The translations under genes were made by a program, and so were the position numbers. Under the pieces are notes generated by a model. It worked only from the letters and a program-made list of their open reading frames with translations, did no database searches and was not told where the DNA came from. From Eremomyces bilateralis CBS 781.70 (Eukaryota): a stretch of 64,000 nucleotides of DNA. Where the stretch lies: the NCBI GenBank assembly GCA_010015585.1, contig ML975157.1. One strand, 5' to 3'. Positions 28,488 through 60,533 of the stretch are shown here, piece after piece. Position 1 is the stretch's first letter. Every line of letters starts with the position of its first letter.

Positions 28488-30554
28488 TTACTTGTTCCAA
28501 TATTCGTGTAGCAGTTCAAGGTCCACCTTGTCCTCGGCCTTGAGGTAAGATGTCAGCTTCTCAACACCTCCGATCCTTTCCCGCTCCGTCCAGCCACTGC
28601 CAAAGTAGGCATATCTATTCTTTTTTGCATCTCCTGATCGATCATAATCAAAGTCTTCCCATCGCGGCTCACGACAAATCATGATCCGATGATGTCCGGA
28701 TCCTGGCCACCAAACCAGAGTTCGAGGCTTCGGTCCTGAAGACTTCAACCACGAGCTGCAAGTGTCGCTGACGACTTTGTCCTGAAAGTACCCCAAACAA
28801 AGGTCATTGAAATCCTCCACGGCCTCCCTTGAAGGCGTGATGGAGCGATATGATTGGAGCTGGAGTTTACGGATAACCTTGGCAATGTATGTAGCTGATA
28901 TCTCGCATTGCAGCGGGATGGATCCACCTCCACCATTACTTTGCGCCTAGAATTCCATGTTAATATATAACGGAACAACCATCACGGAATCTCGCGGTCT
29001 CATGTCATAAAAGGATACATACCTGGAGAATGAAGAAGTAGTTGGGCATGTCGGGGGCCATGATCCCAAAGTATGTCTCCGGATAGCCTACCGCTCCTCC
29101 ATTTGCCCAATCTTTGCTGATGTCTACGCCGTTTCGGCCAACCGTTGGAAAATAGGGAACAAAACCGTTTGAAAACCCCGTCGCAGCGATGATCAAGTCG
29201 ACCACACGCTCCTGTCCATCGGATGTCACGATTCCTTTGGCCGTAACACGATCGATTCTGTCCTGTACGAAGGTGACCTTTTCATCCTGTAGTGCCTCCA
29301 GATATCCAGGAGCGGGAGTCAGCCGCTTGCAACCGGGTGCAAAGTCGGGTAAAAGCCTGTCAAGCCATTCTTTGCTACCGTTCAGCTGGCGAGACATAGT
29401 CTTGATGCATGCTTCTCGAAGCTCCTCGTTGTCCTCGCTGCCCAGGATTGTCCGCTGGAATCGTTCGTGAAGATTCTTCTCGATAGTGCGTCGATACGCC
29501 ACATACTCCTCAGGATCATTGTTGAACTTTCTTATGTCCTCTTTCGTGTACTGGTAACCACCAGGATTACCGGCTTCAGCCTGGACCGTGTTTTTCTGGA
29601 GGCTCGGAGTCACCCAGACTTTCGATCTCACGTAGTGATCGAGGTGGGCAACTTTTGGGAGGATGTTCGGGACAATTTGTTGCCCACTTGCTCCGTTGCC
29701 AATCACGGCGACACGTTTGCCTGTCAAGTCGTAGTTGACATCCCACACTGCAGTGTGTAGGACAGGGCCCTTATATTCGGTCATGAGACCAGGGATGTCC
29801 GGCATTTGAGGCTTGCTGAGTCGACCTTGGGCGTTGATGAAGAATGGGGCGGTATCTGTTGTTATTACACCGGTGTCCATGTTCTTGACTTGAATTTCCC
29901 AATTGGCCAGATTTGGTATCCATGTTGCTCTGATGACCTCTTTTCGAAACTGGATATGCGAGCGTACATTGTACTTGTTAACTATGCTCTCATAGTATTC
30001 ACGGATTTCATGGCCCCTAGAGTAATATTCCGACCAGTGATGGTTTGGAGCAAACGTCGTCTCTACTCATCAAGATTAGATAAACAAATCGAGTCGCACG
30101 GATGTCACCAAAGACCCTTACGATAACAGTGAGACGGCACGTCACATCGAACACCAGGATAAACATTCTCAGCCCAGGTCCCGCCCTTTGAGTGTGACGC
30201 TGTTAGCCAGTTCATGAGTTTTCCCTTTTTTTTGAGTGGGCGAGGGCTTTGGGCCTACAAGCTTTGTGTTTTTGTCGTAAATCACATATGACAAGTTTCG
30301 GACCTTGTAAGACAGCAAGATTGCCGTGATAATACCCGCAAGGCCGGCACCAACGATGATAATCTACAAGACTCAGTATGCTCACACATTTGACGGGCGT
30401 ATGCTTTCCATACCTTTACCGGTTGGTCAGGATCTAATGGTCTAGCTTCAGGGTAGAAAGGAGGTCGGGTGGCATCATCCAGATGGTCACGGGCAGATGG
30501 TGATGACGCTCGCGGCGTAGTCGAATGTCGCTGATGGGCCACTGCAGGGTTCAT
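28488..30554 (-). CDS. Class B flavin-binding monooxygenase (FMO/BVMO-like)
   Basis: IIVGAGLAG, GGTWAENVYPGVRCDVPSH, fingerprint YKGPVLHTAVWD, VIGNGASG, PGCKRLTP, ATGF. Introns 30413-30364, 30258-30186, 30121-30063 and 29022-28947 give a continuous ORF. Confidence 0.9.
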
Positions 30555-30574
30555 TGTAACAAATAATTTGCATA

Positions 30575-31950
30575 TCTCATGATTGATCATCTGCTCAATC
30601 ATTTGAACAACTTGTAGTAAGTCGCCTCTTGAACTCATAAGGTAGTCATTCAAAACCTTGTGCATTCCTTCAACAGGAGAAGTAGTAATTTTGTTATAAT
30701 ATCAGTGATGAAACGTCTATGCAGCTGCCCACTCGGTGCACGTATGGTATTGATTTTCGCATAGATATGTGCAAAGTTCTCGTTGGTCAGCATGATCTTT
30801 CAGTAATACGTCCCACTTGAATTGGAACTCAAGTGGTCTCTTTATGTAAACAAGCTGTTCTAATTAGGTCTATTGTTTCTTGTGTAGTCAGAGCTGGAGC
30901 ATGCCTAGGCCCAACGCTTCATAAATTTAGCCCGTTTATCACCGATTTCCTGCTTCTCTTCTCTTGTTATGCCATTAGCGTCTCGCCAGGTCTTTTGAGC
31001 CTTTGTCTGCACAATCTTATTGATATGCCATACGTATCAGAGTTGTAGAACACCTGGAAACAGAGTGCGAACTGCCAGTTTCACTGCATCCTCCTGACCG
31101 CTGATGAACATGCGTGGCTGTGGTGCCCCTGTATTGAGGAGGAAGTTTGAGATTGCCTAATGGTAGTCTGCTTGTGTCTCGTTACGGAGGAAGTAGAAGC
31201 CTGCAGAGAAGAAGGTCTATAGATTGGTGCAGCCAAGTATGTGCAACAGTGGGAGTTTGTACTTGTTGGTTCGGTACGTAGAGTCTATCAACAGGACATC
31301 GGGATTCGCAAGCAGCAACTCGATCTGCTTCTGGTAGGCAAAGAAGAGACTATGCACGTGGTTCTCCACATCCTTTTTAACAGTATGTATTAGAGACCCA
31401 TTGCGGGATAGAGAGATCGTCCAACAACGTCTCGATAGGACTCCTCCCGTTGAAGTGCTTCTTTCTAATTACCTTCCTCTCACTATGGATGTTGGTAGCG
31501 GAGACCAGCGTATCCGGATCCTCCTTTTGAATAGCAGCCAATATCTCCATCGGCCGCGCCCCAGTATATATCATGAACTAGATCGTGTCTTTCTATGCTA
31601 TTGTCCGTTTACGATAGATATTATGCGCGCTAAGATAAAGTGATCGGGGATAGTTATAATAATGGTTTCGAACCTCCCGCTTCCACTGGTTGCGATTCGT
31701 CTTGAAGAGAACAAGCTTAAAAGGACCTCCTGTTGCGAGAGTACTTGTGCTTCGAGCCCTTGCTTTTGACTGATACTTTTTGAATCGATCGCAGTGGTTG
31801 TAATATCGTGTTTTAATATCGGTTTTGTGAGGGTAGCTCTGCTTGACTACGAAGCCGTAGCCATGCTGCATGCCATGGACCAACAGCTACTCAATTATAG
31901 TAGTTATTCTAGTATCGACAATCTGAACGAGGCCTCGAAAGGTCAGCAAG
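30575..31950 (-). mobile_element. Mutator-like (MULE) transposase relic, degraded
   Basis: FAR1-like N-terminus (HGYGFVVKQS..CDR..PFKL), LLIDSTYRTNKYKLPLL, xWHINK, TTSPVEGMH; several in-frame stops and frameshifts. Confidence 0.88.
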
Positions 31951-36564: not shown

Positions 36565-37471
36565 ATGGATCAAGCAAAGCTTGCACGAATGCAAGCGTCG
36601 GTGCGCATTGGTGAGTGATGATTTCATGCAAATTCGTAGCAATGTCGAAAGATGCTGTCATTATCTCCGTTTGAGAAAACCATGGCTGACTCCGGATATA
36701 GGGTGAGTGATGTCCACTTTCGGGTTTTGGATTCTATTCAAGCCGACGAGCACTACGACGGCATCTACCGCTTGCGAAATCCATCGGAACACGCGGCATG
36801 GTGGTCTCGCTCGTCGATGCAGTGTCGGGTGCTGCCAGTTTTCGATAAACATGAGCGGTCATTTCAGCTAGGATGGGCAAAGGCTAACATAATATCCTCT
36901 AGTGGCAAGGGCACACCGCGCCGCAAGGTCAAGAAGGTCCACAAGTCATCAGGCACCGATGACAAGAAGCTTCAAGCGGCGTTGAAGAAGCTCAATGTGC
37001 AGCCGATCCAGGCCATCGAGGAGGTCAACATGTTCAAGGCGGACGGCAATGTCATTCATTTCTCGGCACCTAAAGGTATGCGCGATATGTCTAGTCTCCC
37101 AGTACCATCCATGATGGAATCGATGCCTTTCTTCTCTTTAGCTTGTCTACAGCACCCTATCTCATGCCGCTACTAGCTCCCGCTCGTTCATTTACTAACT
37201 ATATGATCTCCTAGTTCACGCTGCGGTTCCCGCCAACACCTTCGCCATCTACGGCAACGGCGAAGAGAAAGAGCTCACCGAACTTGTCCCCGGTATCCTG
37301 AACCAGCTGGGCCCCGACAGCCTCGCGTCGCTACGAAAGTTAGCCGAGAGCTATCAGCAGATGCAAGGCGCCGGTGGCAAGGGTAAGGAGGGCGAGGGCG
37401 AGGCGGACGACGATGACATCCCGGACCTGGTGGCCGGCGAGACCTTCGACAAAGATGAAGGCGTCGAGTAA
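36565..37471 (+). CDS. EGD1: Nascent polypeptide-associated complex beta subunit (BTF3)
   Basis: Exons 36565-36610, 36702 (1 nt), 36903-37075 and 37215-37471 give [69 protein letters not shown]. Confidence 0.96.
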
Positions 37472-38057: not shown

Positions 38058-40371
38058 TCACCAGCCGAATCCTTCCCCATAATACCAGATACCCTGCGCC
38101 CCGGTCCCTTTATGCACCGCCCGCTCATCACTCAACCTGACCGTCGCCCCCCGCACACCATCCATCATCCCCAGCGGCCCACACGCCAACACGCCCGTCT
38201 CCCCGCGCGCCTTCTCCAGCACCGCCCGGATGATCGGTTCGGGCGTCGGGCGGCCCGTGGCGAGGTTGATCGAGGGGTGGAGCGACGGGGACGTGGACGA
38301 TTTGGTGAGCTTTGGTGGCTCGGCGCTGGAGGGACGGGATTCGGAGTCGGCGGGGGTGATGCCGCATCGGCAGACGAACTCTGAAGGAGCAGAGGCGTCG
38401 GTGGGGGCGCAGCAGCAGCAGCCGGATGGGCCGCATCCCCCGGTGTTGCTCTGGGGGTCCTGGTCGTTGTCGGAGGACTGGGAGTCGACTTCGTGGACTT
38501 GAACCGGGACACCATCAGAGGGGGCGATTCCTTTTTTCAAGGCCGATTTCTCATCGACGGCGAGGCTCCCATCGGATGCAGCGGGTTGAACCTGCTTGAC
38601 CTCTCCATGCGTCACCTTTGGTTCGGGTCGCTTCTCACCGTAGTGGAAATGGCCCAAGGACTGGAGGAGGTTGCGATGCTCGCCGACGTACTCATCGTCG
38701 CAGGTGCAACAGACGCTGACGTCGAGCTGTACGTCTACGCCATTCGCTCGGAGCGACTCGACTTCCGACTTGGCATCGCAGAGCTGGCTGCAGAACCAAG
38801 CCAGCTGGTGCCGTGATTTGACCGCCCATATGAATCGTATCCGTCGGGTCGCCGCTATATCGGGGGGGTAGATACTAAGTGCCCGGTGCGAAGTCGGAGA
38901 CGCGGAGTGCATCGCCGACCACCGTCTCACCACGTCCCGGATTATAGGAACGCAAAAGGTGGCTCCTGTAGAACCGGCGAAGAGCACAAGGCTGTCGAAC
39001 TGCTCCGGTGGTCTCATGATCCCGTAAGGACCTTCGATGGCAGCCATGCGGGATTCGATTGTAATAGGTAAGCTCACTTGGTCACTCTGAGAATCCGTTC
39101 TTTCTTTTGTCTCTGCCGTCGGTAGGATCGGCGCCTGCTGATCTTTGGATGCAACATGGTGCAACCTCCTGGTTCCACCAGTACGTGCTCTGATAACGAA
39201 GTCCATTTTGCCATCGGACGGGAGGCTGGCAATGGAAAAAGGGTGACTTTGTAAAGGGGCGATTGAATGGCAAGAGAGATAGACATGTTGTCCAGGTCGC
39301 CATGACATAGGCGGATTGCGGATAGTGAGGCGGGTATGATCAGGGGCTAGGGGTGTCAATTCCGCGCGACAAGCCCATGCGCTGTTCATGGCGCCGGAGC
39401 GCCTTTGCTTGGGATGGAAAATGGAGAGATTCAGGTAGAGCACGCGCAAAATCCGTGCGACGCGATCGAAAAAGAAGAACGCGACAGGAAGCCACAAAAA
39501 GATATGGACTTCCTTGGGCGTGTGGATCATGAGAACCCCGATCAACGCGCCGATCGAGATGATGTGCTGGGCGACGAATATCTCATACCGCCACCCTCGG
39601 ATGGGGGCAATACTGGAGATGACGATCCACAGCAGGATACACCAGGCAATCAGGCCTCGTTGCGTTAACGGATCCGTCCGGATCTTGCGCTCTATAAAGC
39701 CTCCATACGGAGCCCAGGCCGTGAACCAATATCCCATATGGATCGTCGCACTGAACAGGAGGCAACGAGCAGTCCATCGGTGCAACCAATTGAGGCGCTC
39801 GTATCCCAGACCTGTCAAATAGCCGATGATATTATTCTTGCCGGCCAGCAGGAATATCAGCGGAATCTGAGAAATCGTCACGAACCCCGTACGGTAGCCG
39901 ATGTTCTCCATGGACCACCGGTCGCGCGTGTCGAATCCATAGAGGCCTAAGGCGACGATGAGGATGATGTTGGCTACGATCAGGGACGTCTTGCCGAGCG
40001 TCGGGAATCGCATATGCCAGTTCGAAATGGTAACAGAAGTCAAACTTGCATTGCTCGCTTCTCGGGTTACTGCAGTCAACGTTGCATACGTCTCAGCCAA
40101 AAGAGATTTGGGTCGAGAAGGGTCGGGTGAGCGTTTGCTCGCAGCCCATATTCTAACATGACCATCAGCGCGCCGTCCTGAGATCAAATGGAACAGCAGG
40201 ATATCCTCACCTTTGCCTGTAAATAAAGTAATTTGTGACGTTGGCTATACACGCAATGGCAATTGTAGTCCCTACGACGCCCCAATATGCTTGCGGAAAA
40301 GACATCAGAGGAGGCATTCCTTTGGACGATCCGCCCGACATGCCTCCCATGCTATGGCCGGCGTGCGACAT
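38058..40371 (-). CDS. Ferric/cupric metalloreductase (FRE family)
   Basis: LAGKNN, heme His pairs (WLHRW..ATIH; AQH..MIH), FAD motif HPFSIAS, EGPYG, AGSTGATF, ACGP, EGFGW. Exon 1 is 40371-40211; intron 40210-40153. Confidence 0.93.
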
Positions 40372-40993
40372 GATGAAGGTATGGAGTGCACCGATAGATT
40401 TCCAAGCTCTTGTATTGTCTCAATGAAGACTTGTTTGTTGGGCAGACCCGGGGTAGAGACGGTCAAAGTCGAGCGCGCACTCGGCTAGATGTTATGAAGA
40501 CGAAGTGGCGGGCGGAGGTTCAACTCAAGAATCGACCCACCAGCATCTCCTCGGTCGATGAAGTGCTACAGGAGGGCAAATGACGATATTGTGGTTTGTT
40601 GTAGGAGAGACGAATGTGTCTTTAGGTTAGCCAATGTGAACGGATCCGGTTATGCCGGTGATGATGTTTGCGACTTTGCGTCAGCCGTCAGGGTCGATTT
40701 ATGCTGGAGTTGGTTCCGCAAGTGTCGCATGTCCAACGTTTACGCCGTTCCACTTGATGATGGATGCATCAGGTCGCGACAGTGGAGAAATGCCACATGG
40801 ACTTTGCCTCGTTCAATTGCAAAACAATTCAGTGCCCGTGTGCAGGGATTAATGCAGCTATACCGGAATACAGTCGTGGAGTGTCGAATATATTCCGGTG
40901 GCAACCGTACTTTTTGTCGAGTCTAGTAATGCTGTCCGTATCCGCACCCCGTCCGAACGGCGATTGGGACTTGAATGCGTCAGTAAATCTGAG

Positions 40994-41597
40994 TGAGCAG
41001 CGATACAGGGAAAAACTAAGACACGATCCGTCCATGCGCCAAGTCGCATTGTGCACGAGCTGCGATCCTCTGTGGACCTGGTTGGACCCTATTATTGGCT
41101 GAGTATCCCTGTTTCCTCCGAATTGACCAATGATAACTTGCTCAAAAGATCGCACATCCGGCCACCCCTGTCATTTCTGATTTCGCTCACCAGGCCTTTT
41201 CCGCATCTGAAGTCGAGGCAAATGATGATTGATGACAATGAACTTGCTCTACGGCCCATCGTTCATGTGTCCTGGTTTCGGGCCTCCAACCCGGCGGTAC
41301 ATGTAATACGTTGACTGCAGTAGTTTAATCCAGTAATACCCGCAATCCCGTTTCCATTACCCTCTGTGGCACCTGACACCGATCGTAGCACCGATATTAT
41401 GTACTCCAACGCTCCTTAACTCTGGACCGCATAAACACCTCATAACAATAATAACCACGACAATTTCCGCTTGAGAAATATCTATTGACAAAGTACATCA
41501 CACAGTACTAATAAGACCGGTAAACTTCGGACGCTATTCGGTGTTTCTGGGGCTCAAAAACGACCTTATATCATATCCCCTTCAGCCGTCTTTGCTC
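40994..41597. promoter_or_regulatory. Cluster of Mac1/Cuf1-type GCTC(A) cores in the FRE-CTR divergent promoter
   Basis: TGAGCAG 40994, TTGCTCA 41138, GCTCA 41185 and 41552, TTTGCTC 41591. Short motifs, so some could be chance. Confidence 0.45.
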
Positions 41598-42125
41598 CTC
41601 CTCATCTCCAGCTTCGGCATTTCCTTAAACCTCTCCCTTCCTCCTCATCTGGTGGATCGTCATCCATCCAATCTTTCAATATAACCTTGCACTCTGATCT
41701 TCCCCATATTCTTGGGTTGGCCCTACCCTATATCTCTCCAATTGATTGCGCATTCCACCATCATCCTTGTCATCCCACTCAACAATCTGGTCCTCGACAT
41801 TCCATAGGTTCGAACTTAAGTCGCGGAAATCTTTCTTCTATCTCGACCTTGTGAAGATCCCAGGGCTTCATCTATTCGAAATTAATTTCCCGTGCCGCCT
41901 CAACGGTCACTAACCAGGACGCCGGAACCCCCATTTTCGGCTTTCGAATTGGCCAACATCCATTCTCCCGAGTTCACACGTCGGCGGCTTCCACCCCGAA
42001 CTTCGGATTCGAACATTGGCCAAAAGCTTCGCAAAATCATACGAAGCCTTCGCGAAAGATTCATGCCATCAGGTCTTCCTATACCCCAGTGGCGCATTGC
42101 GAAATCCACGACCGCTTCCGCGAGC

Positions 42126-42857
42126 ATGCCATCTCTATTCCTCCTCGCCTTCCTCCTCCCCTTCACCTCCGCGCAACACACCCATGGCAGCACTTCAGAT
42201 TCCACTTCAGGTTCCACGTCCGCCAGCATGCACGCCTCGGAAATGGTCATGGCCTTCTTTTCCTCGACCACCACCGCCCTCTACTCCGACGGCTGGACGC
42301 CCTCGTCCGCCGGCGCCTACGCCGGCACCTGCATCTTCTTGATCGTCCTCGCCGTCGTCTTCCGCGCGCTCCTCGCGGCGAAACATCGTCTCGAAGCGCT
42401 GTGGCACGACCAGGCGCTCCAACGACGGTATGTGGTCGTTGATGGGAAGCCAACAGAGGCGGAAAGGATCCGTGACGCGGCGACCGCGGGAGAGGCGGCG
42501 GAGCGGGACGCGGGTGGGTTTTTTGGGAAGGACGCCGATGTACGGAGCGGGGTTTTGTCGATCAATGGGGTGGAAGAGGAGGTGAGGGTGGTGCGGGCGC
42601 CTACCGGACCGGTCCAGGCCTTCAGGTTGACAACCGACGTGCCGCGTGCTGCTCTCGTCGTCGTCATTGTGGGTGTTGGGTACCTCCTGTGAGTATACCT
42701 TCGGAGCCAGGGAGAAACGAAACCAGAGCTAATACTTCGCAGGATGCTGGCGGTCATGACCCTGAACGTAGGGTACTTCCTCTCTATCCTCGGAGGCACT
42801 TTCCTAGGTGAATTAGTGTTTGGGAGATTCGGTCATGCAGTGGAGATGAACCACTGA
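42126..42857 (+). CDS. CTR-family copper transporter
   Basis: M.M.F..L..WTP.S.GAYAGTCIFL; intron 42689-42742 creates YLLMLAVMT (MxxxM) followed by GGTFLG (GxxxG). Confidence 0.95.
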
Positions 42858-43628
42858 TATTTCGTCCGTGGAAGCCATTTTCTTCCAGGGGTTCTCGTTC
42901 TGCATGCCGGCAGTAATCATCGTTGCAATTGTATAGCATGGCGTTCTGGTTATGGCCTTGTACAGGTGGATGCCCGGTGGTGGCTAACTTATGTGACACG
43001 TTCCCTTTTCATGTTCATATCAACCAAAGTTCAAGATTGGTATTGTCAATTCCTTTCCCACCCTTCGTGATCTATTCATTGAATGGGTGATGTGTCCAAG
43101 GCGTCATTCCGAAAAGCCGAACTACGGATCCGCCCATGCTGTCTGCCTATACTCTACGTGTACCCAATGTCACGGAGGACATGTCTGTACTTTGCAATAC
43201 CCTGAAACTGGTTGACCTTGGCATGGTCTATATTGCTTGCAGGTGGCAATCCATGGCTTCGGGTCAGCTTATAAGTACGGAATGACCGACCAGAATCTGA
43301 TACAACCTGAATCAGCATGTCTTCCGCTTCTATTCCGAGCTGATGATTATAAAATCGTTCACATCGATCGCATCAAGCCACTCCGTCCGCGGACAAGGCG
43401 GGACAAGCTTTAAGCCACCTGGTAGACTGACTGCACTCCACAGTCAAACATGTTTCCCATTATGCCGTTCATCCGTCGAACACCAACCACATCTCAAGAT
43501 GCCCATCCTACCGCTTCTTCACGCCCGATCGTTCGCGAGGCAATTGACGCCGCAGCGGATTTCCCAGCCCACGATATCCGGAACGAGCGCATCTCAACTC
43601 CGACCACCAAATGCGGAGCCCAGAAAAC

Positions 43629-43645
43629 GTGCTCAATTCCGCTCA
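43629..43645 (+). promoter_or_regulatory. Tandem GCTCA cores (GTGCTCAATTCCGCTCA), candidate Mac1 sites upstream of the BIM1-like gene
   Basis: Two GCTCA cores 10 bp apart, about 670 bp upstream of ATG 44314. Confidence 0.4.
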
Positions 43646-44313
43646 ACGAGGCGTGCGACCTGCGACTAAGGTTTACGAGACCCTCGCTAGCCTGCATTAG
43701 CGGCATGGCGCGTCCTGGTTGCCGTTTCGATTGGCCCGTCGTCCCGGGAGCCGGATGGTCGGATGCGGACTAATCATGCTAAGCTTTGGTGGCGTGGTGG
43801 GGTCGGCAGGGAGGAGGGATGTGGGCATTCAAAGCTGGCGGGGGCAATGAAGCAAGTGACGGAAGGTGCGAAGTTCAGGAAAGAGCGAGAGGTCTGGGGA
43901 TGCGGCGAGACGGCGGACAACGGTGGATGCCCAGCGGTTGTGGAATGTAGAGGAAGCAATACGACACCTAGCTCCCCCGCCAATTGCACTACCTGGTCAT
44001 ACATATATGGTACGGAGTTACAGGTACGTAGTTCAGTAAACAAATGCTCGGCTAGCTGGATCATAGTATGACGGTGACGTCTCTAGCAGTGGATTCGACG
44101 TCTGGTGTAATCACAGGCACTGGATGTGGCAGGTTTAAATAAATAAATGGATCCTTTCCTTCATTCACCTCTCTGCCCCAGCTTGCATTTCTGCTGTACT
44201 TTTGACCTGTTCGACTTCGACTAACAACCATTGACATCTCCAAACTTCTTTGATGAAAGTTGAATTCGTCTTCAGAAATTGACACCAGCTCGATTACCTA
44301 GCTCCCACCTACC

Positions 44314-45032
44314 ATGCATATCTCCGCCGTCCTCCTTTCCCTCCCCGCCCTCTCCTTCGCCCACTTCCACCTCCTCTTCCCCCCCGTGCGCGGCTCCTTC
44401 GACGCCGGCTCCTTGGACCAGTACCCCTGCGGCGGCCAGAACACCGTCGGCGACCGCACCGACTTCCCCATTTCCGGCGGCCCCATCCAGATCGACAACG
44501 AGCACACCGAGTCCAAGATCCAGGTGCTCCTGGCCCTCGGCGAGAACCCGACCGGCGATGACTTCGTCTACGTCATGCTGCCGACCATCTACGCGCAGGG
44601 GCCGCAGGAGTTCTGCATGGGCATGGTGGGCGCGCCGGCGGAGGCGAATGTGACGGAGGGGACGAAGGGGACGATCTCGGTGGTGACGAGCGGGGATTCG
44701 AATGGGGGGTTGTATCAGGTGCGTTTGGCTGGGTGACGCAGGAATGGCGATGGGCGGATGCTAATTGCAAGCAGTGTGCGGATGTCACTTTCGTCAACAC
44801 TCCGCTGCCGGAAGCCGAGTACAACGATAACTGCAAGAACGCCACGGGCATCCAGGTTTCTTCATCAAATGGGAACGCGAACGGTTCGAGCTCAGCTACT
44901 TCTCCATCATCCAGCAGTGATGGCGGTGCCGCCGCATCGCCAACGTCGACGCCTGGTGCCGCCTCTGTCAACGGTCTGGGTCCTGCCCTCGCGGTTGCGG
45001 TGGGAGCCATGGGTATTGCTGCTCTATTGTAG
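44314..45032 (+). CDS. GPI-anchored LPMO-like copper protein (X325/BIM1-like)
   Basis: Signal peptide followed by mature His1 (HFxLxxPxxRG..PCGG), second His at mature position 48, GD..GGLYQCAD across intron 44719-44774, Ser/Thr linker, hydrophobic GPI signal. Confidence 0.9.
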
Positions 45033-55763: not shown

Positions 55764-58330
55764 TGCGAACGGTGTTGGCGTTCTACGCCAATGGATTGAT
55801 TCCGGACAGTATGCGGTTCTGGGCTCGAATGTCGTCTCGAATATCGTCTAATGTATGAGGTAGGACCGCAGAGATATATCCAAAGAGGGTGTAGAATAGA
55901 GATATCCCACTATATCATATCTCAGAAGTGTGAGATGTTTTCGATGATAAGATCAACTGCGCATGGTGCCTTGAGTAGTACCAGTGCGTAGGGTGCTGGG
56001 CGGCGAATGCTACTGGTAGCAGAGGTTATCGATATGGTTTGCTACTGGAAAGCGCGCGGTCCACAAGCGCTAAAGACGCAACAATATCAGTCTACAACAG
56101 TAGATAAGAGGTCGTTCACGGTCAGAGAGGGACAGAGGGTGAATGGCAGGTTGTCGATCACAGCAGGATTGTCGAGGCGAGCTGTGGGACGTAAGGTATA
56201 TACTCCCAGCTGCAAAATATTCAAGGGACCGCAAAATATACTGGTTCCTGTCATGTCAAAAGTCTCAAAGTCTGAACGCATCAACCCACCCTACCCAGTA
56301 ATTCTCTTAATACTATAGTAGTTCCCAGTTCCGCCACGGGCTCGGGAGCGCGGTAGCTTAGGCTGAATCGGGCGTGGCGTGGTGGTAGTTTGATCATTTG
56401 TTGGTGCGATATGAGTTGGAGGTTCGCAACTTGCTAGACATACAAGACGACGACGGAGCAAAAAACCGCATTTTGCGTCTGATCAACCTCCGATCCAAGC
56501 CTTTTTTGACGTAATTACTAGGTTCTCGACTAGGAAGTTACTCCACGTCGTTGGAAGCGGGAGCCAGCCACAAATCCCACCACCAGTCCGAGATAGGTTC
56601 ATGCAGGTGCTAGGGAGGGGGCGGATGGCTGGCCTAGTGGCCAATTGAAAAGGCAGGCCCTCGCCGAAAGCAACAGAGGACAGGGGAACTGATTGAAGGA
56701 TTCCGAAACATTCTGCAATCGATTGACGTAGGGGAATGATATGTAACTACGGAATACCTATCGTCAACTGATCTATCCGACCATCCCCACCACCTGGTGA
56801 CCTGAGACTTTCGAATGCATGTCGTCCAGGATAAGGGGAGTTGGACTTACGCGATTAGCAAGATGTAACTATCGTACATGAGTTCCGACGAATGGACAAA
56901 AGGTTGAATATTGAAGCTACCCAAGAAAGGAGGGTCGTCTGATCTCTGCGTGTAAAATGCTGTCCGGTTCGAATCGCATGCCCAATTGCACATACATTCG
57001 AATTCCCACCCCTTCTTGTCCTTGCAGCATCCACACCCGAATATCCTGTAATACTTATGGACGGTTGAGCCCAAATCGGCCACTCCGACTCCAGTGACGG
57101 CGGTCACGGCGCTACAACTGCGAGGGATTATCTTAGCTGGATAGCTTCTTGTGATTCCCTGCTTCGAGATGGCTCGATTCTGGAGTCTGGCCTCCCGAAT
57201 CCTAACGAAGCTCTCGCTTCCCCTCCTTACCCTTAGAAGCAGCATACATATCAATATTGCTCCAACACGGCAATTCCGCCTAATGAATCCAGACTTCCCG
57301 ATTTCTCGATGATGATATCATGAGGATCATAGTTCCACCGTTGAAAAAACGCCGAACAACGGGCACGAAGAGGGGCGGGCTAGGGAAGTGGGTTGGCGTC
57401 AGAGATTTTAATTTCTAAATTTTATCTGATGCCTGTCGCGTCAGTCAAAGTCCAAAGTCCAAACGATCGCTCGATGCCCGTCAAACCGTCAACCGCCGTC
57501 AACGCGCCAATGCGGAACTGCCAATTATCATTGACCAAGCCCTATGGCTGTTGTGGGCCCGTAGTTCAACCCATCTCGATTCTCAGATTTCGTCGATTGG
57601 TCGGACGGCGCAAAGTCGCTCGCTGCTGTAGAGTCATCGGGAATTCGGGATACATGTAACTACAAGCTCTGTGAGCATGGGGTGCGAGTCAACGGCCGAG
57701 TACTGTTTATATAGGTACCTTGACATTAATCGGTTAAGTAAATGCCAATAAGTACTGTGAGGGTACTCAGCAGGGTCATCCTACCTCGATTCAGTCACAG
57801 TTCGCGAAAGATGTGCAACTCAGAAGTACATCCAGGATTTATACGTCATCGGTAGATCAGAGTGTATCGCATGCCTCAGAGACCAAAGCCGATGCCGACA
57901 TGCATTCCTTCGCCTTGATCGATCTTCAACTTAATTTCGCCATCGATACTTGTTGGGACAGTTCGACGGCACGGTTTTTATTCCCATCGTGAACAATCGG
58001 GAGGCTCCAAGCGCAGCCAGTCCACAATCCGTCCAACCATCGGGGTCCAAACGGGCCATGTCTCACGAACCCGACTAGGGGTGTTCCCGATACGATATCG
58101 TCACGATCTTGCCATATCGGTTATCGTATCGGTGAGGAAGAATCCCGCCGATTTATATCGGCCAATCGTATCCGCAGAGACACGGCGAATGCGAATAAAT
58201 ATCGGCAAGATCGTCGCCGATACGATTATCGTCTCCGATATTGGCGCTAAATCATGAGTTCGTCCTAATTTGGTATTCTCTCCTGTATATCTTCTCGCAG
58301 CGACGGTAATAATGTCTATTACGCGCAATA

Positions 58331-59300
58331 NNNNNNNNNNNNNNNNNNNNNNNNNNNNNNNNNNNNNNNNNNNNNNNNNNNNNNNNNNNNNNNNNNNNNN
58401 NNNNNNNNNNNNNNNNNNNNNNNNNNNNNNNNNNNNNNNNNNNNNNNNNNNNNNNNNNNNNNNNNNNNNNNNNNNNNNNNNNNNNNNNNNNNNNNNNNNN
58501 NNNNNNNNNNNNNNNNNNNNNNNNNNNNNNNNNNNNNNNNNNNNNNNNNNNNNNNNNNNNNNNNNNNNNNNNNNNNNNNNNNNNNNNNNNNNNNNNNNNN
58601 NNNNNNNNNNNNNNNNNNNNNNNNNNNNNNNNNNNNNNNNNNNNNNNNNNNNNNNNNNNNNNNNNNNNNNNNNNNNNNNNNNNNNNNNNNNNNNNNNNNN
58701 NNNNNNNNNNNNNNNNNNNNNNNNNNNNNNNNNNNNNNNNNNNNNNNNNNNNNNNNNNNNNNNNNNNNNNNNNNNNNNNNNNNNNNNNNNNNNNNNNNNN
58801 NNNNNNNNNNNNNNNNNNNNNNNNNNNNNNNNNNNNNNNNNNNNNNNNNNNNNNNNNNNNNNNNNNNNNNNNNNNNNNNNNNNNNNNNNNNNNNNNNNNN
58901 NNNNNNNNNNNNNNNNNNNNNNNNNNNNNNNNNNNNNNNNNNNNNNNNNNNNNNNNNNNNNNNNNNNNNNNNNNNNNNNNNNNNNNNNNNNNNNNNNNNN
59001 NNNNNNNNNNNNNNNNNNNNNNNNNNNNNNNNNNNNNNNNNNNNNNNNNNNNNNNNNNNNNNNNNNNNNNNNNNNNNNNNNNNNNNNNNNNNNNNNNNNN
59101 NNNNNNNNNNNNNNNNNNNNNNNNNNNNNNNNNNNNNNNNNNNNNNNNNNNNNNNNNNNNNNNNNNNNNNNNNNNNNNNNNNNNNNNNNNNNNNNNNNNN
59201 NNNNNNNNNNNNNNNNNNNNNNNNNNNNNNNNNNNNNNNNNNNNNNNNNNNNNNNNNNNNNNNNNNNNNNNNNNNNNNNNNNNNNNNNNNNNNNNNNNNN
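58331..59300. other. Assembly gap (970 N) inside the hAT element
   Basis: Run of N. Confidence 1.
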
Positions 59301-60533
59301 AATGCCCGTAACAATGAAGTTATGGCCTCAGAATTGTTCCATACCTTGAACGAAAAATGTGGCGCAGAGACGCTCCCAAACGGGCTTCTATTCCGCGGAG
59401 TGGACAGCTACATCCGCTGCCTGGCCCATATTTTGAACTTAATCGTTCAAGATATCCTTCGCGCCTTGAAATCAGGAAGCGTGGAAGAGGCATACACCAT
59501 CTGTGATAGCTTATACGCTGGGGGATCTATATCGAGTCAGACAGCATTGTCTAAGCTCCGCATTCTCGCTCTCTGGATTGACCGGAGCCCACAGAGACGG
59601 CAGAAATGGAAAGAAGTCTGTCAATTCATGAATCTCTCGGAAAAATTCATTGAATATGATGTAGAGACTCGTTGGAACTCTACCTATCGAATGTTAGATG
59701 ACGGGTTAAAAGCAAAGGCTCAGATCAATCGATACCTAGCCCTACAGACGGAGATACCTTCCTTTACCACCGAGGAATGGCAGCACCTGTCTCAGATTCA
59801 TCAAGTACTGAGCAAGTTCAACGAGCTCACCCTGTTCGTATCAGAGCGAAAGCCACAGATCAGCCTTACCGTCCCACTCTATTATGAGCTACATGATTTA
59901 CTCAATGAGGGGTCTGAAGCTCAGGGAGTCTTTTCGGGATTAGATCGTGATATTGCCCAAGCAATCAAGGAAGGAATGAAGAAATACGAGAAATACTACA
60001 CCTTTATGGATGAATCAGATACCTACTACACTGCTCTGATTCTAGATCCTCGGGTGAAAGGAGACCTAATCCTCAATGAATTAGAGGATAAAGAGGCTGG
60101 GAATCTAATATTAAGAGCTGTCCGTAACAGTCTTCATCAGAAATATCCACTTCGGAACCGCGAATCGCCTAGAACGGTATTACAGCAGTCGGCATCGGAA
60201 ATCAAGACGGTAGAATCCCGAATGCTCCAACGGCTACAGCCTCAAGCGGTGCCCCTTCTGTCCGATATTGATCGGTACTTTGACAGTCCTCGAGTTAGCA
60301 ATATTGATACTACAGATCCGAATTGGCTTTGTAACTGGTGGCGAGTACACAAGGATGAACTGCCTCAAATGGCAGCAGCAGCAAGAGAGTATCTACCAAT
60401 TCCATCGTCAGAGATGTCAGTGGAACGATTATTCAATGCGGCAAGAGATATATTAGGTATCCGGAGATATTCGATGAAGGGTGAAACAATGCGGATGTTG
60501 ATGTTGATAAATGATCCCTATGCAAAGCCCTAG
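59301..60533 (+). CDS. hAT transposase, C-terminal part (N-terminus lies in the gap)
   Basis: RCLAHILNL (CxxH), DVETRWNSTY, ALILDPR, dimerization domain WWR..LPQMA..AR.YL.IPSSE.SVERLF; no stops. Confidence 0.93.
   Translation, partial: NARNNEVMASELFHTLNEKCGAETLPNGLLFRGVDSYIRCLAHILNLIVQDILRALKSGSVEEAYTICDSLYAGGSISSQTALSKLRILALWIDRSPQRRQKWKEVCQFMNLSEKFIEYDVETRWNSTYRMLDDGLKAKAQINRYLALQTEIPSFTTEEWQHLSQIHQVLSKFNELTLFVSERKPQISLTVPLYYELHDLLNEGSEAQGVFSGLDRDIAQAIKEGMKKYEKYYTFMDESDTYYTALILDPRVKGDLILNELEDKEAGNLILRAVRNSLHQKYPLRNRESPRTVLQQSASEIKTVESRMLQRLQPQAVPLLSDIDRYFDSPRVSNIDTTDPNWLCNWWRVHKDELPQMAAAAREYLPIPSSEMSVERLFNAARDILGIRRYSMKGETMRMLMLINDPYAKP

Follow-up and report, generated by a model that had tools for sequence, protein, structure and literature searches.

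A FRE metalloreductase, Ctr transporter and BIM1/X325-like gene trio in Eremomyces bilateralis as a probable Mac1-type copper-uptake cluster

A 64,000-nucleotide stretch of contig ML975157.1 of Eremomyces bilateralis CBS 781.70 (hereafter the window) carries, at positions 38058 to 45032, a FRE-family metalloreductase gene, a Ctr copper transporter gene (CTR) and a gene for a BIM1/X325-like protein; the question raised by this locus is whether the three form one copper-acquisition unit, as was proposed in an earlier note made from the DNA alone, or whether the third gene does something else beside a reductase-transporter pair. The evidence assembled here makes it probable that the trio is an old Pezizomycotina copper-starvation and uptake cluster of the Mac1 type, matching Afu6g02820-02810-02800 of Aspergillus fumigatus. 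The physical trio (published in 2008), the component families and the logic of the pathway are already known, and new here are the recognition of the third gene as a BIM1-like one, the wide conservation of the gene order and a Mac1-type element in the X325 promoter. Statements below on published work refer to the portions of the cited papers that were available.

The three genes and their products

The three genes are consecutive in the window gene models and each is spliced with one intron. The FRE gene lies on the minus strand at 40371-38058 (751 amino acids; exons 40371-40211 and 40152-38058, intron 40153-40210), and the CTR gene on the plus strand at 42126-42857 (225 amino acids; intron 42689-42742), followed on the same strand by the BIM1/X325-like gene at 44314-45032 (220 amino acids; intron 44719-44774). 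Joints matching all three introns occur among the contigs of run X3, which on a guess from the tool is taken to be RNA, and DNA run X1 is without such joints; the X325 protein is identical to P0001, named by its source as an Eremomyces bilateralis CBS 781.70 protein. Both the divergent FRE/CTR promoter region (40372..42125; 1,754 bp) and the region holding the CTR terminator and the X325 promoter (42858..44313; 1,456 bp) are gene-free by open reading frame (ORF) and Pfam search: the longest ATG ORFs in them have 122 and 108 codons respectively, and six spacer ORFs of 113-142 amino acids gave no Pfam match above cut-off. Hidden genes within the two spacers were thus rejected, since neither ORF lengths nor Pfam support any. 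The arrangement described in the earlier note, three adjacent genes with FRE divergent from CTR and no gene between, is confirmed by the models, by Pfam and by the spacer search, and hidden Markov model searches place the members of all three families above their Pfam cut-offs.

The FRE product matches PF01794 (9e-28) together with PF08022 and PF08030, and has haem His pairs at 178/192 and 250/264, HPFS at 357, GPYG at 428 and a FAGSTG motif; the transmembrane haem domain with four His, the FAD domain and the NADPH domain that define the FRE/NOX family are all present. Its N-terminal peptide (residues 1-24; 40300..40371, minus strand) is rich in His and Met and precedes an extra, weakly hydrophobic segment; it resembles a Ctr ectodomain and it is probably extracellular. 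Like the window, 13 of the 15 distinct trio loci of relatives described below show a Met- or His/Met-rich FRE start, with the sequence printout stopping short of the start in L009 and L011. The cytosolic NADPH domain contains in addition a cysteine loop of the CCC...CxC type (38300-38480, minus strand), whose CCC, present in the window, recurs in 10 of the 11 loci printed (loop region in L008, L009, L011, L013, L021, L031, L034, L042, L048 and L050) and which could bind Cu(I). Both the peptide and the loop would fit a copper role, and the peptide is suggestive of a preference for Cu(II) over Fe(III).

Membership of the second product in the Ctr family is well marked. It matches PF04145 at 3e-23 (83.3 bits against a cut-off of 25.3) and has MxxxM at 189-193 in the second transmembrane helix and GxxxG at 206-210 in the third, and the His and Met residues of its ectodomain (H18, H20, M35, H36, M40 and M42) include M40 and M42 ahead of the first transmembrane helix at 66-84, in keeping with the family habit of Met placed about 20 residues before that helix. 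The CTR start (42126-42185, plus strand) encodes an apparent cleavable signal peptide followed by Gln-His-Thr-His; that of L015 is similar, and most other loci open directly with Met/His-rich peptides.

Exon 1 of the third gene matches PF20238 at 5e-26 (92.3 bits against a cut-off of 27), and the protein is laid out as a signal peptide (residues 1-16), a domain extending from 17 to about 165, a Ser/Gly/Thr-rich stalk, small residues near 196-198 and a hydrophobic C-terminal tail at 202-220, the end being of the glycosylphosphatidylinositol (GPI) type at the level of pattern. The reference structure is LaX325 of Laetisaria arvalis (PDB 6IBH, 6IBI, 6IBJ), about 33% identical to the window protein, which matches it in fold, His1 and His49. 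Given cleavage after Ala16, to which the hydrophobic N-terminus and the alignment with LaX325 residue 1 both point, His17 (codon 44362..44364, plus strand) becomes mature His1, and every one of the 82 aligned homologues has it. The second histidine, His64 (44503..44505, plus strand; mature His48), aligns to LaX325 His49 and is present in at least 90% of the same 82 sequences, across which four cysteines are also invariant. That His17 and His64 are the brace histidines is certain.

The likely third copper ligand is Asp128 (44695..44697, plus strand), situated on a Gly-rich loop. The HMMER alignment pairs LaX325 Asp122 with Asn130 and leaves Asp128 two residues earlier, a shift of register due to a loop insertion; in the window clade the loop reads x-[D/H] and is one or two residues longer, as opposed to the basidiomycete-type GGDG. 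Asp128 is nevertheless taken as the likely ligand because its position is occupied by Asp (181) or His (87) in 268 of 277 proteins matching the loop pattern, whereas the Asn130 position varies; the 277 were drawn from 438 proteins, many of them close relatives or fragments. Position 128 is His in many proteins of Pleosporales and in proteins of Geopyxis and Lineolata (P0011, P0020, P0039 and P0152 are among those concerned), which suggests a His-His-His variant of the site. Of the GPI-anchored His-His-Asp protein announced in the earlier note, mature His1 and His48 and the GD..GGLYQCAD motif stand as described; the Asp is likely, with its register shifted, and the anchor is putative, by pattern.

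A sequence search of solved structures returned LaX325 as the sole match (E 1.9e-11). An AlphaFold2 model built from 82 sequences (mean predicted local distance difference test score 83.3) superposes on LaX325 6IBH with Z 20.1 and a root-mean-square deviation of 1.7 over 139 aligned residues, compared to a best Z of 10.3 for any lytic polysaccharide monooxygenase (LPMO), and Foldseek concurs (6.6e-11 for the X325 structure vs 9.7e-4 for the next). There were no LPMO Pfam matches to the window protein at E 0.1, and membership in AA9, AA10 or AA11 was rejected on these fold scores; the modelled protein would thus have the X325 fold, distinct from the LPMO families. It could still be supposed that the protein is an active polysaccharide monooxygenase that takes electrons from FRE and copper from the CTR route, in view of its His brace, its LPMO-like fold (Z about 10 to AA10 and AA11) and the electron source encoded next door. 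This is extremely improbable: LaX325 is much the closer structure, no polysaccharide activity has been detected for Bim1 or several X325 members (PMC7529816, PMC7924993), the conserved Asp/His is available to occupy the free copper site, and a promoter element of the starvation-activated kind described below would be unexpected for a copper enzyme.

Conserved gene order and a shared promoter element

The breadth of the linkage was examined in one metagenome-contig scan with a 12-sequence alignment, in which 197 pattern matches yielded 49 confirmed X325 loci whose neighbours were identified by local tblastn. The full trio in the order and orientation of the window was found at 20 of the 49; at 7 more, CTR lies directly upstream and the contig ends before a FRE gene is visible. 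At 21 loci neither CTR nor FRE was matched, and 20 of these were set aside for having less than 1.4 kb of upstream sequence. When at least 2 kb is available upstream (22 loci), CTR is directly upstream in 21 and FRE is present also in 20; collapsing the 22 at 90% nucleotide identity gives 16 groups, 15 of which have the full trio. By nearest named protein, the trio loci fall in Pleosporales, among Aureobasidium-like and Elsinoe-like fungi, and nearest to Blumeria or Xylona, placements that are approximate. The synteny that the earlier note proposed to survey is found, in metagenomic relatives with at least 2 kb upstream, at nearly all distinct loci.

The surroundings of the trio behave differently. 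In an all-against-all comparison of the 16 loci and the window, each flanking gene was common to at most six, which argues against passive block synteny; the trio holds together as the flanks change. The window trio is flanked at left by NAC-beta and at right by SEN1: NAC-beta, on the FRE side in the window, is on the X325 side in Pleosporales, and none of the 49 loci showed SEN1.

A second line of evidence comes from the spacers between the genes. Six- and seven-mers were ranked in the spacers of the 15 distinct trio loci and the window, gene ends being extrapolated, and enrichment was tested against 300 dinucleotide-preserving shuffles, with the words picked after ranking. The top seven-mers were TGCTCAA in FRE-CTR spacers and TTGCTCA in CTR-X325 spacers. 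TGCTCAA occurs in 13 of 16 FRE-CTR spacers (2.6 expected), TGCTCA in 13 of 16 CTR-X325 spacers (7.6 expected) and CTTGCTCA in 9 of the 16 CTR-X325 spacers (0.7 expected), and for each of the three, 0 of 300 shuffles scored as high; the FRE-CTR spacer of L015 is without the TGCTCA core. Control regions downstream of X325, with two too-short regions dropped and some coding sequence included, show no enrichment of TGCTCA (6 of 14 vs 6.4 expected). These words match an outside standard, the Fusarium oxysporum Mac1 consensus DHNTGCTCANNN with core TGCTCA (a DHNTGCTCA element) obtained by chromatin immunoprecipitation sequencing (PMC11563359).

Each spacer of the window has one site of the Mac1 consensus. 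The site in the FRE/CTR region, AACTTGCTCA (41135..41144, plus strand), fits DHNTGCTCANNN and is upstream of both genes, at 991 bp from the ATG of CTR and 764 bp from that of FRE; that in the X325 promoter, AACGTGCTCA (43626..43635, plus strand), lies 688 bp before the X325 ATG. The 10-mer AACNTGCTCA, which was derived from a set that includes the window, has three window matches against 0.63 expected (4 of 100 shuffles); the third is at 59809, within a very AT-rich stretch at 58001-60000 (GC 0.165 and 0.324) that is possibly a repeat mutated by repeat-induced point mutation. Yeast-style Mac1 patterns were uninformative on the single window (TKTGCTCR 9 vs 9.1 expected, none of them in the two spacers; TTGCTC 41 vs 38.4 expected), and the signal emerged only across relatives. 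The 26.9-Mb genome has two PF00649 copper-fist matches, one of which, the gene at C4:900512, has downstream a Cys-rich stretch, CxCxxxCxCxxCxxH, that we take to be the Mac1 motif; by domain content, a Mac1-like copper-fist factor thus appears to be encoded.

The same genome holds at least three PF20238 loci, at least three Ctr genes and at least about 12 FRE-type loci, and the 17-kb stretches around each of the other two X325 paralogues (contigs C22 and C2) contain no Ctr or FRE match. The second paralogue (C22 near 65,730) is preceded, about 190 bp upstream of the ATG, by a complete Mac1-type site (L002, 2200-2209, minus strand) and may parallel the strongly induced BLP3 of Pseudogymnoascus destructans. 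The third (C2 near 1,347,200; L003) has a longer N-terminal loop, and the Mac1-type 10-mer is absent from its 17 kb; this paralogue is presumably a candidate for the HAM-7/IDC2 counterpart.

These results bear on the possibility that an ordinary FRE-CTR pair merely has X325 beside it as a passive neighbour, with another role for the latter such as cell-fusion signalling of the HAM-7/IDC2 type. Two-gene FRE-CTR pairs are indeed as familiar as the earlier note had assumed, a pair of the Aspergillus nidulans ctrA-freC type being present in 110 of 127 species (PMC7705104), and because NAC-beta also stays near the locus in both Pleosporales and the window, some of the linkage there is ancestral. 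However, the reshuffling of the flanks around a persisting trio, with NAC-beta switching ends between the window and Pleosporales, is contrary to passive retention; X325 promoters carry a Mac1-type site of their own at 13 of 16 loci, and the motif-free C2 paralogue would, on the assignment presumed above, be the better HAM-7 candidate. A merely passive X325 gene is therefore very unlikely.

Related loci in other fungi and the weighing of the evidence

The closest precedent for a cluster of this composition is in A. fumigatus, where Sugui et al. 2008 (PMC2481287) reported as direct neighbours Afu6g02800 (putative GPI-anchored protein), Afu6g02810 (the copper transporter ctrA2) and Afu6g02820 (metalloreductase), the same three gene types that adjoin in E. 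bilateralis. The A. fumigatus trio was up together in hyphae exposed to normal as compared to chronic granulomatous disease neutrophils (table values 11, 8 and 3), and a triple deletion was sensitive to menadione and unimpaired both on low iron and when facing neutrophils (PMC2481287). Afu6g02800 is called only a putative GPI-anchored protein there, and the available portion of that paper mentions no copper-limitation assay. The belief that no cluster containing an X325 gene had been described thus has to be given up as regards the physical trio, and keeps its force in that the third gene of the published trio was not recognised as BIM1-like. No paper interpreting the trio as a Bim1 module or surveying its synteny came out of a literature search that covered few subscription papers.

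Correspondence of the two loci is supported by the third gene in particular. Afu6g02800 (P0400) matches PF20238 at 1.5e-37 and shares 35% identity with the window protein across 188 residues; in a one-directional search of the E. bilateralis genome, its best match is the window X325 (5.8e-17 vs 5.4e-4), and the window protein and an Aspergillus leporis homologue fall in the same broad clade of a 99-sequence FastTree tree. By gene order, the window CTR and FRE would be the counterparts of ctrA2 and Afu6g02820. In excess copper ctrA2 is down 4.85-fold (PMC8425704); a search of the single supplementary file of that paper turned up no record of a copper response of Afu6g02800. A Histoplasma protein named expression library immunization antigen 1 (P0312) is also a PF20238 protein, with a loop of the Afu6g02800 type.

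Copper-dependent expression is documented in P. destructans, in which the chelator bathocuproine disulfonate raised BLP2 (VC83_03095) 3.8-fold in RNA and 11.9-fold in protein, and also raised a FRE gene (VC83_03096) whose locus tag adjoins that of BLP2 (PMC12113139, PMC13208438). The A. fumigatus homologues listed for BLP2, FRE and CTR1a are XP_747797, XP_747795 and XP_747796 (PMC12113139, PMC13208438), three consecutive accessions that probably denote the same trio; the available portions of these papers carry no remark on the linkage of BLP2 and FRE. A connection to Mac1 comes from F. oxysporum, where Mac1 directly targets fre10, a gene grouped with Afu6g02820 in a tree file; the divergent promoter bound by Mac1 there serves both fre10 and the uncharacterised FOXG_02393 (PMC11563359). 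Divergent reductase-transporter pairs with a shared Mac1 promoter and a TGCTCA core are known as fre9/ctr3 and fre12/ctr1b in F. oxysporum (PMC11563359) and freC/ctrA in A. nidulans (PMC7705104); unlike the window, these are described in the portions available with no X325 gene reported alongside. In Histoplasma, depletion of Mac1 left CTR1 and CTR2 unchanged (PMC9040751).

A number of observations weigh against the reading of the trio as a conserved copper-uptake cluster, in addition to the shifted register of Asp128. The query alignment was Dothideomycete-weighted and shaped the sample of loci. L046, with 5,992 bp upstream, lacks the trio and has a P450-reductase gene upstream and a sugar transporter downstream, its X325 being closest to an Exophiala spinifera protein; at L026 CTR lies downstream on the opposite strand. 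TGCTCA is absent from the X325 spacer in L011, L013 and L034 (3 of 16), and the 16 loci are not fully independent, because some of their spacers align to each other. In two other species CTR has gone from the cluster: apparently so in P. destructans, whose CTR1a locus tag (00191) is far from those of BLP2 and FRE (03095/03096), unlike the window (PMC12113139, PMC13208438), and in F. oxysporum, whose ctr1a, the ctrA2 orthologue, is unclustered (PMC11563359). Under excess copper Afu6g02820 was listed as higher in the wild type than in an aceA mutant, out of step with the fall of ctrA2 (PMC8425704). Finally, the BLP2 protein of P. destructans is abundant whatever the condition, and a function in the matrix has been proposed for it by those who described it (PMC12113139, PMC13208438).

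The last point leads to the alternative that the cluster is copper-regulated and its X325 protein serves as a wall copper buffer, or as an aid to wall integrity or against oxidative stress during starvation, and not as a donor to CTR. The placing of BLP2 in the top 4% of proteins under every condition (PMC12113139, PMC13208438), the wall defects of Cryptococcus Cbi1 mutants (PMC9258870), and menadione sensitivity as the only phenotype reported for the A. fumigatus triple deletion (PMC2481287) are all in its favor, as is the departure of CTR, which has parted from FRE in F. oxysporum and, judging by locus tags, from the FRE/BLP2 pair in P. destructans. On the other hand, Cryptococcus Bim1 (Cbi1), a GPI-anchored His-brace X325 protein induced by copper starvation, works with Ctr1 (PMC7529816, PMC9258870, PMC7924993); the BIM1 and CTR1 tags (CNAG_02775 and CNAG_07701) are far apart, and linkage is not described in the portions available of PMC11509074 and PMC9258870. 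In the scan, CTR was counted as adjoining X325 in tandem at 28 of the 49 loci and convergently at 1 more. Moreover, poor copper supply to Cu/Zn superoxide dismutase also yields menadione sensitivity. A wall role in place of copper donation is accordingly judged unlikely.

Surroundings of the locus and a proposed working

Several features near the trio are recorded here for completeness. The NAC-beta gene of the window (36565-37471, plus strand) has a run X3 joint from 36610 to 36902 with non-canonical ends. Public gene models of Pleosporales (P0056, P0064, P0065, P0072, P0083, P0088) fuse X325 to the downstream NAC-beta; the fusion is probably an annotation error, because at the loci themselves X325 and NAC-beta are two genes separated by about 0.9 kb. 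Loss of FRE-CTR in the Pleosporales with fused models was considered and rejected, FRE-CTR being upstream of X325 and X325 upstream of NAC-beta. Further to the left, at 30282-31886 (minus strand), are broken remnants of a transposase of the Mutator-like element type, of which the piece at 31217-31465 matches PF21056 (2e-6) and PF10551 (6e-5).

The reading of the trio as a Mac1-type copper-uptake cluster implies the following sequence of events. At low copper, a Mac1-type factor would bind one site in the FRE/CTR promoter and one in the X325 promoter. The X325 protein, presumably GPI-anchored, would bind Cu(II) on the outside of the cell through the brace histidines His17 and His64, with Asp128 closing the site; the Asp and the metal binding are assigned by analogy to LaX325 and Bim1. 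FRE, as its motifs suggest, would move electrons from NADPH to FAD and through two haems to Cu(II), and a specificity for copper is suggested by its His/Met-rich N-terminus and by the regulation of its homologues. The His/Met ectodomain of CTR would then catch Cu(I), with import through the MxxxM pore as expected of a family member. Since Bim1 is barely reduced by ascorbate and loses its copper on exposure to H2O2 (PMC7529816), copper may leave the brace before reduction.

The co-regulated capture, reduction and import unit of the earlier note is supported by the linkage (15 of the 16 distinct loci), by a Mac1-type site in each of the two spacers and by the induction in P. destructans; as to delivery, hand-over of copper by the X325 protein to CTR is a step that we infer. 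A more elaborate version would have an ancestral three-part relay of filamentous ascomycetes whose parts touch: the brace passes Cu(II) to the His/Met peptide of FRE, where it is reduced in place and given as Cu(I) to CTR, the CCC...CxC loop of FRE senses Cu(I) and stops reduction, the Asp/His ligand tunes affinity by lineage, FOXG_02393 is an X325 member, and the 2008 triple mutant amounts to a knockout of a Bim1 module. Taken jointly over all of these parts, that version is possible but doubtful.

Ascomycetes have several X325 paralogues that might stand in for Cryptococcus Bim1. Linkage to Ctr and FRE, together with a Mac1-type site of its own, singles out one X325 clade as the probable copper-acquisition form, and the existing triple deletion of A. 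fumigatus thereby gains a new interpretation.

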